Assembly: GCF_003334315.1 (NCBI RefSeq)
Contig: NZ_QOWR01000019.1
Length of the DNA stretch: 64,000 bases
Direction: 5' to 3' (one strand)
From: Escherichia coli
GTDB taxonomy: Bacteria; Pseudomonadota; Gammaproteobacteria; Enterobacterales; Enterobacteriaceae
A model generated the notes under the pieces. That model was not told the origin of the DNA. It was given only the letters and a program-made list of their open reading frames with translations, and searched no databases. Positions within the stretch are counted from its first letter, which is position 1. Each line of letters starts with the position of its first letter. The position numbers and the translations under genes are program-made. This document shows positions 32,594 through 36,583 of this stretch, one piece after another.

Positions 32594-35500
32594 TTGAGCC
32601 AGGAATACACTGAAGACAAAGAAGTCACATTGACAAAGTTAAGTAGCGGCCGCCGCCTTCTGGAGGCGTTGCTGATCCTTATTGTCCTGTTTGCCGTCTG
32701 GTTGATGGCTGCCTTACTAAGCTTTAACCCTTCGGACCCCAGCTGGTCGCAAACGGCCTGGCATGAACCTATCCATAATTTAGGTGGGATGCCCGGTGCG
32801 TGGTTGGCAGATACGCTGTTCTTTATTTTTGGCGTGATGGCTTACACCATTCCCGTCATTATTGTCGGCGGTTGTTGGTTTGCCTGGCGTCATCAGTCCA
32901 GCGACGAATACATTGATTATTTTGCCGTTTCGCTACGCATCATTGGCGTTTTGGCGCTCATCCTTACCTCCTGTGGTCTGGCGGCAATCAACGCTGACGA
33001 TATCTGGTATTTTGCCTCCGGTGGCGTCATTGGCAGCTTACTAAGCACTACGCTACAACCACTGCTACACAGTAGCGGGGGAACTATTGCGCTGCTCTGC
33101 GTTTGGGCAGCGGGCCTGACGTTGTTCACCGGTTGGTCATGGGTGACCATTGCTGAAAAACTCGGCGGCTGGATTTTAAACATTCTCACCTTCGCCAGTA
33201 ATCGTACCCGTCGCGATGATACCTGGGTCGATGAAGATGAGTATGAAGACGACGAAGAGTATGAAGATGAAAATCACGGCAAACAGCATGAATCACGCCG
33301 TGCCCGTATTCTTCGCGGCGCGCTAGCGCGTCGTAAACGGTTGGCGGAAAAATTCATTAATCCGATGGGGCGGCAAACAGACGCTGCGTTGTTCTCCGGT
33401 AAGCGGATGGATGATGACGAAGAGATTACCTACACTGCACGCGGTGTGGCTGCCGACCCGGACGACGTCCTATTTTCGGGCAATCGTGCAACGCAGCCAG
33501 AATATGACGAATACGATCCATTATTAAACGGTGCGCCAATTACCGAACCTGTCGCTGTAGCAGCTGCTGCTACCACGGCGACACAAAGCTGGGCTGCGCC
33601 GGTTGAACCTGTGACTCAGACGCCGCCTGTTGCCTCTGTTGATGTTCCACCTGCGCAACCTACAGTAGCCTGGCAGCCTGTACCGGGTCCACAAACGGGA
33701 GAGCCGGTTATTGCTCCTGCACCGGAAGGTTACCCACAGCAGTCACAATATGCGCAGCCTGCATTGCAATATAATGAGCCGCTGCAACAACCAGTACAGC
33801 CGCAGCAGCCGTATTATGCACCTGCAGCTGAACAACCTGCGCAACAGCCGTATTATGCCCCTGCGCCAGAACAACCGGTGGCAGGTAACGCCTGGCAAGC
33901 CGAAGAGCAGCAATCCACTTTTGCTCCACAGTCTACATACCAGACTGAGCAAACTTATCAGCAGCCAGCCGCTCAGGAGCCGTTGTACCAACAGCCGCAA
34001 CCCGTTGAACAGCAGCCTGTTGTGGAGCCTGAACCCGTTGTAGAAGAGACAAAACCCGCGCGTCCGCCGCTTTACTACTTTGAAGAAGTTGAAGAGAAGC
34101 GAGCCCGTGAACGTGAACAACTTGCGGCCTGGTATCAACCGATTCCAGAACCGGTTAAAGAACCAGAACCGATCAAATCTTCGCTGAAAGCACCTTCTGT
34201 TGCAGCAGTACCTCCAGTAGAAGCCGCTGCCGCTGTTTCCCCGCTGGCATCTGGCGTGAAAAAAGCGACACTGGCGACGGGGGCTGCCGCAACCGTTGCC
34301 GCGCCAGTCTTCAGTCTGGCAAATAGCGGTGGACCGCGTCCTCAGGTCAAAGAGGGGATTGGTCCGCAGTTGCCACGACCGAAACGTATCCGCGTGCCAA
34401 CTCGTCGTGAACTGGCGTCTTACGGTATTAAGCTGCCCTCACAGCGTGCGGCGGAAGAAAAAGCCCGTGAAGCCCAGCGCAATCAGTACGATTCTGGCGA
34501 TCAGTACAACGATGATGAAATCGATGCGATGCAGCAGGATGAACTGGCACGTCAGTTCGCCCAGACACAGCAGCAACGCTATGGCGAACAGTATCAACAT
34601 GATGTGCCCGTAAACGCAGAAGATGCAGATGCTGCGGCAGAGGCTGAACTGGCTCGTCAGTTTGCGCAAACTCAACAACAACGTTATTCCGGCGAACAAC
34701 CGGCTGGGGCGAATCCGTTCTCGCTGGATGATTTTGAATTTTCGCCAATGAAAGCGTTGCTGGATGATGGTCCACACGAACCGTTGTTTACGCCAATTGT
34801 TGAACCTGTACAGCAGCCGCAACAACCGGTTGCACCGCAGCAGCAATATCAGCAGCCGCAACAACCAGTTCCGCCGCAGCCGCAGTATCAGCAGCCACAA
34901 CAGCCGGTTGCGCCGCAGCCACAATATCAGCAGCCGCAACAACCGGTTGCGCCACAGCAGCAATATCAGCAGCCGCAACAACCGGTTGCGCCGCAGCAGC
35001 AGTATCAGCAGCCACAACAGCCAGTTGCGCCACAACCGCAGGATACCCTGCTTCATCCGCTGTTGATGCGTAATGGCGACAGCCGTCCGTTGCATAAACC
35101 GACGACGCCGCTGCCTTCTCTGGATTTGCTGACACCGCCGCCGAGCGAAGTGGAGCCGGTAGATACCTTTGCGCTTGAACAAATGGCTCGTCTGGTGGAA
35201 GCGCGTCTGGCTGATTTCCGTATTAAAGCCGATGTCGTCAATTACTCTCCGGGGCCGGTTATCACTCGCTTTGAACTTAACCTGGCTCCTGGCGTAAAAG
35301 CGGCGCGCATTTCTAACTTGTCACGGGACCTTGCCCGTTCACTTTCGACGGTGGCGGTGCGTGTCGTTGAAGTTATTCCTGGCAAACCCTATGTAGGTCT
35401 GGAGTTACCAAATAAAAAACGACAAACCGTTTATCTGCGCGAAGTTTTGGATAACGCCAAATTCCGCGATAATCCGTCGCCATTAACCGTGGTGCTGGGT

Positions 35501-36583
35501 AAAGATATCGCCGGTGAGCCGGTGGTTGCCGATCTGGCGAAAATGCCGCACTTGTTGGTTGCGGGGACTACCGGTTCCGGTAAATCTGTCGGTGTGAACG
35601 CGATGATCCTGAGCATGCTTTATAAAGCACAGCCAGAAGATGTGCGTTTCATCATGATCGACCCGAAAATGCTGGAGCTTTCGGTGTATGAAGGCATTCC
35701 GCACCTGTTAACGGAAGTCGTTACTGATATGAAAGATGCCGCCAACGCGCTGCGCTGGTGTGTTAACGAGATGGAGCGTCGGTATAAACTGATGTCTGCG
35801 CTGGGTGTGCGTAATCTGGCGGGTTATAACGAAAAAATTGCTGAAGCCGATCGCATGATGCGTCCGATTCCAGACCCGTACTGGAAGCCGGGTGACAGTA
35901 TGGATGCCCAGCATCCGGTGCTGAAAAAAGAACCATACATTGTGGTGTTGGTTGACGAATTTGCCGACCTGATGATGACGGTAGGTAAAAAAGTGGAAGA
36001 GCTGATAGCACGTCTGGCGCAAAAAGCCCGTGCCGCGGGTATCCACCTCGTACTGGCAACTCAGCGTCCATCGGTTGATGTTATTACTGGTCTGATTAAA
36101 GCGAATATTCCGACCCGTATCGCCTTTACCGTATCCAGTAAGATTGACTCACGTACCATTCTTGATCAGGCTGGCGCGGAATCACTGCTGGGGATGGGGG
36201 ATATGCTCTACTCTGGGCCGAACTCCACGTTGCCGGTACGTGTCCATGGTGCTTTTGTTCGCGATCAGGAAGTTCATGCCGTGGTGCAGGACTGGAAAGC
36301 GCGTGGTCGCCCACAGTATGTTGATGGCATCACTTCCGACAGTGAAAGCGAAGGTGGCGCGGGCGGTTTCGATGGCGCTGAAGAACTGGATCCGTTGTTC
36401 GATCAGGCGGTGCAGTTTGTCACTGAAAAACGCAAAGCGTCAATTTCTGGCGTACAGCGTCAGTTCCGCATTGGTTATAACCGTGCAGCGCGTATTATCG
36501 AACAGATGGAAGCGCAGGGGATTGTCAGCGAACAGGGGCACAACGGTAATCGTGAAGTGCTGGCCCCACCGCCGTTTGACTAA
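32594..36583 (+). CDS. ftsK: DNA translocase FtsK
   Basis: N-terminal TM domain, long Pro/Gln-rich linker, C-terminal FtsK/SpoIIIE motor (GTTGSGKS) and gamma domain; TTG start; 1329 aa. Confidence 0.95.
34810..35042 (+). repeat. in-frame 39-bp tandem repeat x6 in the ftsK linker ([10 protein letters not shown][QP]QY units)
   Basis: six near-identical 13-codon units read directly from sequence. Confidence 0.85.

Follow-up and report, generated by a model that had tools for sequence, protein, structure and literature searches.

An in-frame 39-bp repeat at the end of the FtsK linker of Escherichia coli is the typing locus CVN001

The ftsK gene and its linker repeat

The gene ftsK, which encodes the DNA translocase FtsK, contains a tandem repeat within a 64,000-nt window of Escherichia coli (assembly GCF_003334315.1, contig NZ_QOWR01000019.1). 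The repeat, called array B here, is made of six copies of a 39-bp unit that is read in the frame of the gene. The gene, the array with its units, and the translocase part of the protein are placed in the window as follows.

32594..36583, plus strand: ftsK coding sequence, 3990 nt and 1329 aa, TTG start, stop included (from the list of open reading frames, ORFs)
34811..35044, plus strand: array B, six in-frame 39-bp units, FtsK residues 740-817, locus CVN001 of MLVA (analysis of variable-number tandem repeats at multiple loci), from Tandem Repeats Finder and in-frame reading
34811-34849, plus strand: array B unit 1, complete 13-codon unit in the ftsK frame
34850-34888, plus strand: array B unit 2, complete 13-codon unit in the ftsK frame
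34889-34927, plus strand: array B unit 3, complete 13-codon unit in the ftsK frame
34928-34966, plus strand: array B unit 4, complete 13-codon unit in the ftsK frame
34967-35005, plus strand: array B unit 5, complete 13-codon unit in the ftsK frame
35006-35044, plus strand: array B unit 6, complete 13-codon unit in the ftsK frame
35045..36580, plus strand: FtsK C-terminal translocase, residues 818-1329, placed by alignment to PDB 2IUS and starting at the first codon after array B

The product belongs to the NCBIfam equivalog NF007615, "DNA translocase FtsK," which it matches end to end (residues 1-1329 on profile positions 1-1355) with 3048 bits against a cutoff of 1566. It also carries the full domain set of an FtsK protein, i.e., the 4TM region, the alpha domain, the FtsK/SpoIIIE ATPase (beta), and the gamma winged-helix domain. 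A Pfam search run on residues 130-1329 recovered FtsK_4TM, FtsK_alpha (residues 840-940, 1.8e-29), FtsK_SpoIIIE (948-1161, 1.1e-87), and FtsK_gamma (1264-1324, 4.4e-28), where the positions include the 129-residue query offset. The same search found no Pfam domain over residues 192-839, and the Pfam and PDB searches together found no domain or solved structure over residues 192-817. Array B therefore sits between the 4TM region and FtsK_alpha, i.e., in the linker. Chain A of PDB 2IUS, a 512-aa crystallised C-domain of E. coli FtsK, aligns to residues 818-1329. Because array B ends at residue 817 and the translocase starts at 818, the array is the last segment of the linker and abuts the motor. 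FtsK-deltaC has been defined as amino acids 1-818 (PMC3870252).

Homologues of the region were found in 5426 of 5426 complete E. coli genomes, which identifies the window as E. coli. RefSeq annotates ftsK, and no other gene, at the homologous place in every E. coli genome fetched, and the coding sequence has the same 3990-nt length in K-12 KLY and other strains. The TTG at 32594 fits these RefSeq lengths (3990 nt in K-12 KLY), and this non-ATG codon appears to be the accepted start of ftsK. A preliminary description of this DNA had placed the repeat in the FtsK linker, and the NF007615 score, the RefSeq annotation, and the Pfam domain boundaries all bear out both the gene and the site.

The repeat itself is regular. 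Tandem Repeats Finder reports positions 34811-35031 with a period of 39, 5.7 copies, 88% matches, and a score of 344, as well as a period-117 reading with 94% matches. Read in frame, this becomes six head-to-tail units of fixed period, as the preliminary description had it; its coordinates for the array (34810-35042) were one base off at the start and two at the end. The six units encode one 13-residue peptide and close variants of it, and residues 740-817 are 50% Gln and 28% Pro. On average, two units share 87% of their nucleotides and 90% of their amino acids; 11 of 39 columns are variable, and 8 of these 11 are third codon positions. The period-39 self-match of the tract is 0.872, while 2000 codon shuffles of the tract gave 0.50 +/- 0.03 with a maximum of 0.65. 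With a self-match so far above the shuffles, the periodicity is not due to composition. From its sequence, the tract is probably an unstructured Pro/Gln-rich spacer just before the DNA-pumping domain.

Copy number, CVN001, and the pace of change

The length of array B differs from one E. coli genome to another. When the query included the array, it aligned unbroken through the six units in 2357 of the 5426 genomes and broke at the repeat in the other 3069. Such a query separates only six-unit-like genomes from all others. Lengths were hence taken from flank-only queries, in which the array is read as the gap between two joined pieces. The samples of 59 and 60 genomes used in this work were picked by rank in the BLAST list, evenly spread in the case of the 59, and are not random. 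Six length classes were found with the flank-only query among the 59 genomes.

210 bp, 5.4 units: 1 of 59 genomes
225 bp, 5.8 units: 1 of 59 genomes
234 bp, 6 units: 24 of 59 genomes
249 bp, 6.4 units: 4 of 59 genomes
273 bp, 7 units: 24 of 59 genomes
312 bp, 8 units: 5 of 59 genomes

Lengths that do not correspond to whole units thus occur in 6 of the 59. Alleles fetched from individual strains run from 5 to 9 units.

5 units: strain 23CRST044
5.4 units: strain PT62
5.8 units: strain GABEEC10
6 units: the window and K-12 KLY
6.4 units: ATCC 25922
7 units: O157:H7 and JJ1887 (the latter presumably of sequence type 131, ST131)
8 units: ECO8855 and N32
9 units: O121:H19 FWSEC0006

The fetched alleles all stay in frame and encode proteins of 1329-1394 aa that are otherwise ~99% identical. 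The preliminary description had predicted a change in copy number and named an identical number in all related genomes as the observation that would speak against it. Instead, with 5 to 9 units across the species and six length classes in 59 genomes, array B behaves as a variable-number tandem repeat (VNTR).

This VNTR is already in use for typing. CVN001 belongs to the generic MLVA scheme for E. coli, GECM-7/GECM-10 (Lindstedt et al. 2007, cited after PMC8143711 and PMC5217547). It is described as a 39-bp repeat whose allele number is (product size - 250)/39, with the primers given in Table 1 of PMC8143711. Each of the two primers has a single exact match in the window.

34698..34716, plus strand: CVN001 forward primer AACCGGCTGGGGCGAATCC
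35123..35142, minus strand: CVN001 reverse primer GGCGGCGGTGTCAGCAAATC

Since the published primers match exactly on both sides of the array and bracket it, array B is CVN001. The link comes from this primer mapping; the open-access papers on CVN001 that were consulted do not state that the locus lies in ftsK. The preliminary description was right in reading the tract as a variable ftsK repeat and did not recognise it as this typing locus.

The published allele numbers need a correction. The amplicon in the window, 34698..35142, is 445 bp, for which the formula gives (445-250)/39, i.e., allele 5, yet six units are present. The part of the amplicon outside the array measures only 211 bp, and the MLVA number is therefore one below the true unit count. 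In Swedish isolates with extended-spectrum beta-lactamases, alleles 4, 5, 6, 7, and 8 were found at 1, 40, 40, 13, and 5%, and all O25b-ST131 isolates had allele 6, i.e., were monomorphic (PMC5217547). With one unit added, the published spectrum reproduces the genome spectrum found here and also the 7 units of JJ1887. For MLVA in silico, one unit should be added to the CVN001 allele number to obtain the true count.

Repeats of this kind can be collapsed or expanded during assembly, and an array of 234 bp exceeds a typical short read; the preliminary description had named collapse as a risk, but no sign of it was seen. That the six-unit length in the window arose in this way is nevertheless extremely improbable. 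The same unit order, a-b-c-d-e-f, is found in K-12 KLY. Over the 651-bp region with the array, independent complete genomes match at 100% and many K-12 and B derivatives at 99.8%. In addition, assemblers can anchor on the differences between units, which affect 11 of 39 columns, and the length spectrum of the complete genomes agrees with fragment sizing by polymerase chain reaction (PMC5217547), which speaks against a systematic problem.

Unit maps of the alleles indicate how the array may have changed. A two-unit (78-bp) duplication is seen in ECO8855, which reads "k l k l m" where O43 RM10042 has "k l m," and another in O121:H19, which reads "k J k J m" against the same "k l m." A single unit is duplicated in N32 ("w w"). 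The hybrid unit p joins the head of g to the tail of h, with one unit lost, and 15-bp partial units also occur among the alleles. To judge from these maps, the duplications and the hybrid and partial units would be the expected footprints of slippage or unequal exchange.

The array also changes on haplotypes that have otherwise hardly moved. The strains O43 RM10042, TUM9754, and ECO8855 show 0-1 nt differences over the 2050 bp of ftsK that flank the array, yet they have 7, 6, and 8 units, respectively. This indicates that the array changes faster than the flanks accumulate substitutions. Within clones, the picture is different. A flank-only query built from O157:H7 listed 60 genomes with 100% identical flanks, and 60 of 60 have exactly 273 bp, or 7 units. 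Every K-12-derived lab strain sampled likewise has 6 units (234 bp). With both groups uniform, the locus varies between lineages and is stable within a clone. The hypervariability named in the preliminary description thus overstates the case: lineages differ in unit number, but 60 of 60 O157:H7-type genomes share the same number and the ST131 isolates are monomorphic (PMC5217547).

These data bear on whether array B could be a hypermutable contingency locus, altering its length over short times inside a clone as phase-variable simple-sequence repeats do. The differing unit numbers on nearly identical haplotypes would fit such a locus, as would the fact that CVN001 ranks with the more variable loci in the generic MLVA scheme for E. 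coli (PMC5217547, PMC8143711). However, a unit of 39 bp is a multiple of three, so array B cannot act as an on/off switch. In place of the unit length or promoter position expected of a phase-variable repeat, it has a 13-codon unit inside an essential gene. Identity between units of only 87% disfavours slippage. The frequent within-clone change expected of a contingency locus is likewise absent from the 60 O157:H7-type genomes at 273 bp, from the sampled K-12 derivatives at 6 units, and from ST131, which is monomorphic (PMC5217547). The contingency reading is already disfavoured and very unlikely; array B is not hypermutable.

TUM9754 deserves separate mention. It has 0 differences from O43 RM10042 in the 2050-bp flanks, and the two arrays differ in count (6 vs. 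7) and in unit content. TUM9754 reads a-b-c-d plus a two-unit tail, and O43 RM10042 reads k-l-m-g-h plus an identical two-unit tail. The head of the TUM9754 array equals the K-12 type, so that the allele resembles a mosaic, K-12-type at its head and O43-type at its tail. The unit order suggests that two alleles recombined at a point within the array, and recombination of this kind probably contributes to array variation.

Other features of ftsK

Two further features of the gene are an ORF on the opposite strand and a second, shorter array.

34439..35182, minus strand: 247-aa antisense ORF from the ORF list, judged non-coding, a by-product of CAG/CCG-rich codons
33803..33880, plus strand: array A, two in-frame 39-bp units, residues 404-429 (Tandem Repeats Finder: 33801-33876, period 39, 1.9 copies)

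The antisense ORF runs across array B and was noted in the preliminary description as spurious; its coordinates agree exactly with the ORF list. A real overlapping gene that owns the repeat would be expected to have a conserved frame and to be under purifying selection in that frame. The ORF is long, and none of the E. coli alleles examined interrupts it (254-306 aa). Across array B, however, 5 of 6 frames are free of stops, because CAG, CAA, and CCG and their complements contain none, and openness here follows purely from composition. The ORF has no match to an NCBIfam family, its predicted product is a Leu/Arg low-complexity sequence, and RefSeq annotates only ftsK there in every genome fetched. 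In Escherichia albertii the frame is broken, with a longest open stretch of 110 aa. Substitutions were counted against E. albertii in the non-repeat part of the ORF, using the 369 aligned nt to the left of the array only, as the short piece on the right gave no BLAST hit at the E. albertii locus: in the ftsK frame 47 are synonymous and 17 non-synonymous, while in the antisense frame the counts are 14 and 50. The E. coli alleles show the same bias, their changes being mostly silent when read as ftsK and mostly residue-altering when read as the antisense ORF. A real antisense gene has next to no chance of being the correct explanation, and on its sequence the ORF is taken to be a spurious by-product of composition, as had been proposed. 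In practice, ORF callers can emit an antisense ORF of 250-300 aa at this place, and it should be suppressed.

Array A is polymorphic as well. In 60 spread genomes it has 2 copies in 20, 3 in 18, and 4 in 22, and arrays A and B together account for the FtsK lengths of 1329-1394 aa. It was not found named as a typing locus in the literature. The idea that the two arrays compensate each other in length was considered and rejected: the summed lengths range over 104-169 aa, and a long array A tends to go with a long array B. FtsK therefore legitimately varies from 1329 to at least 1394 aa between E. coli strains, in 13-residue steps at two sites, and length differences among ftsK annotations are for this reason not errors. 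Gene-by-gene typing and pangenome clustering will split or misalign ftsK alleles at the arrays.

Upstream of array B, a 14-residue motif occurs twice, 35 residues apart, at 34541..34582 and 34646..34687 (residues 650-663 and 685-698). This doublet, of the type ELARQFAxxQQxRY, is kept across Enterobacteriaceae and Hafnia, unlike the P/Q arrays. It is found in a looser form in Erwinia, Pantoea, and Yersinia and as a single copy in Rodentibacter. Its conservation in sequence suggests that the doublet may be a functional element of the linker.

Among the matches to the ftsK flank queries were 8 places on plasmid-labelled records. In strain CRE10 (H120, NZ_CP034404.1) there are two places in the record, and the best covers query positions 343-800 only. 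This hints at a split or rearranged ftsK, or at a record that starts inside the gene.

The repeat as a linker spacer and its known counterparts

The FtsK linker is described as unstructured or low-complexity and Pro/Gln-rich, as varying in length between species, and as needed for normal FtsK activity (PMC5357621, PMC5391129, PMC3870252, PMC2680272). It tethers the N-terminal domain, which is anchored to the membrane and the divisome, to the hexameric DNA translocase that starts at residue 818. In the reading proposed here, whole 13-codon units would be gained or lost by replication slippage or unequal recombination, as the hybrid units and the 39- and 78-bp duplications of natural alleles suggest. 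A 13-codon unit can come or go as a whole without disturbing the reading frame, and the outcome is FtsK proteins that differ in length and still work. Array changes are commoner than point substitutions in the surrounding 2 kb, yet rare enough to leave one allele per clone, and it is because a clone keeps one allele that the locus can serve as the MLVA marker CVN001. Selection appears to keep the composition of the unit, its amino-acid motif, and a length range of ~5-9 units rather than the exact sequence, a view that follows from the synonymous-site bias and the cross-species comparison. Drawing on the linker literature, the tract may be a flexible, extended spacer whose reach would grow by 13 residues with every unit.

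The position of array B was compared across species in a scan of species-representative genomes, in which 80 loci were kept among the matches listed (Salmonella, Klebsiella, and Shigella are not among them). The region translated was that upstream of a conserved (D/E)(T/S)L(L/I)HP(L/F)LMRNG motif. In the Enterobacteriaceae loci examined, the position always holds a P/Q/Y-rich tract, and its organisation differs from one organism to another.

Citrobacter werkmanii: 39 bp x 5.1, 97% matches
Citrobacter sp. FP75: 39 bp x 2.7
Enterobacter sp. Bisph1: 42 bp x 7.4
Superficieibacter electus: 45 bp x 6.8
Photorhabdus caribbeanensis: 9 bp x 11.9, perfect QQP
Escherichia albertii: two degenerate units plus a poly-Ala run
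Pluralibacter, Mangrovibacter, and others: no tandem structure
one metagenome-assembled genome: 51-54 bp period

Among the loci examined from Vibrio, Pasteurellaceae, and Pseudomonas, linkers are short and lack the P/Q/Y tract. Units are more alike within a species than between species. At the level of sequence, this points to repeated local expansion and homogenisation of a spacer constrained in composition rather than to a conserved motif.

Two of these loci stand out in their own right. In E. albertii NBRC 107761 (L012 2884..2924), the position of array B holds, besides the degenerate units, a hexanucleotide repeat, GCTGCC x7, that encodes a run of about 11 alanines. In Photorhabdus caribbeanensis HG29 (L030 2891..2997), 11.9 copies with 100% matches encode (QQP)12 directly before the conserved start of the translocase domain. 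As a candidate for rapid slippage, this perfect array of short units ranks above the one in E. coli.

A different role for the units has to be weighed. They might form a multivalent docking array for a divisome protein or for FtsK itself, in which copy number would set valency and length variation would be functional tuning. Parts of the linker are reported to interact with FtsQ, FtsL, FtsI, and FtsZ (review, PMC5357621). The differences between units are mostly synonymous (8 of 11 variable columns at third positions), and ~40 DNA variants of the unit in 15 alleles reduce to roughly ten peptide variants. A docking motif would, however, be expected to persist, and this one is not conserved outside Escherichia and Citrobacter. 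Related genera have units of 14, 15, or 3 residues or no repeat there while the flanks are conserved, and much of the tract in E. albertii is replaced by poly-Ala. Healthy natural isolates have anything from 5 to 9 copies. Variation in Gln and Pro codons falls mainly on the third position in any case, so a constraint on composition alone explains the synonymous bias. On this evidence, a docking array is unlikely.

Taken as a whole, it is very likely that array B is a coding minisatellite (VNTR) in ftsK that varies in length, keeps the frame, differs between lineages, is stable within clones, and has the proposed role of a flexible spacer. Several points weigh against this account. The disorder and the spacer role are drawn from composition, from the absence of a Pfam domain or solved structure, and from reviews, and the synonymous bias between units could mean that the 13-residue motif itself is recognised by a partner. 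The choice between slippage and recombination is read from allele structures, where TUM9754 and O43 RM10042 show a pattern that simple slippage explains no better than recombination between alleles does. Furthermore, rank in the BLAST list, and not chance, determined which genomes entered the samples of 59 and 60.

A more speculative proposal, and an unlikely one, is that the combined length of arrays A and B (104-169 residues in natural alleles) tunes how far the FtsK motor reaches from the septum and so measurably alters the timing or efficiency of chromosome-dimer resolution or the stability of the divisome, or else that the 13-residue motif is a multivalent divisome ligand. If length did tune motor reach, lineage-specific lengths would be adaptive rather than neutral. 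In any case, the alleles of this locus form a natural series with which the importance of linker length could be examined.

Array B is a real and correctly interpreted feature that was already known: it is the coding VNTR CVN001 at the end of the FtsK linker, and the findings suggest no new mechanism. New here are the assignment of CVN001 to FtsK residues 740-817, the one-unit shift in the MLVA count, allele maps drawn unit by unit, and the polymorphism of array A. CVN001 and array B are the same locus with the same 39-bp repeat, matching primers, and an allele spectrum shifted by one unit; there is no biological difference between them, only an MLVA count that is one lower.

The published counterpart in another species is the 39-bp ftsK VNTR of Salmonella, STTR7/SENTR2 (PMC2430564), which sits in a "variable PQ repeat region" (PMC2430564, PMC8627665) and is used for MLVA in several serovars (PMC2430564, PMC8627665, PMC6137255). 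In-frame ftsK deletions of 84 and 195 bp have been found between Salmonella isolates (PMC2430564, PMC8627665, PMC6137255). When the 84-bp repeat indel was swapped between two S. Enteritidis strains, survival in egg white was unchanged (PMC6137255). The Salmonella locus differs from array B in species and in having more copies (9.3 in S. Enteritidis NCTC 13349). Its likeness, as taken from the literature, holds for ftsK and could concern either array B or array A.

The linker repeats of other Enterobacteriaceae share with array B the position just N-terminal of (D/E)(T/S)L(L/I)HP(L/F)LMRNG and the P/Q/Y composition. They differ in period, and several genera have no tandem structure, which makes them look like independent expansions rather than one conserved repeat. 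Finally, the linker domain of E. coli FtsK (FtsKL) is a Pro/Gln-rich, low-complexity stretch of ~600-650 residues that joins FtsKN to FtsKC. While the FtsKL literature consulted treats the linker as a whole, array B is specifically residues 740-817, the last 78 residues of that domain.

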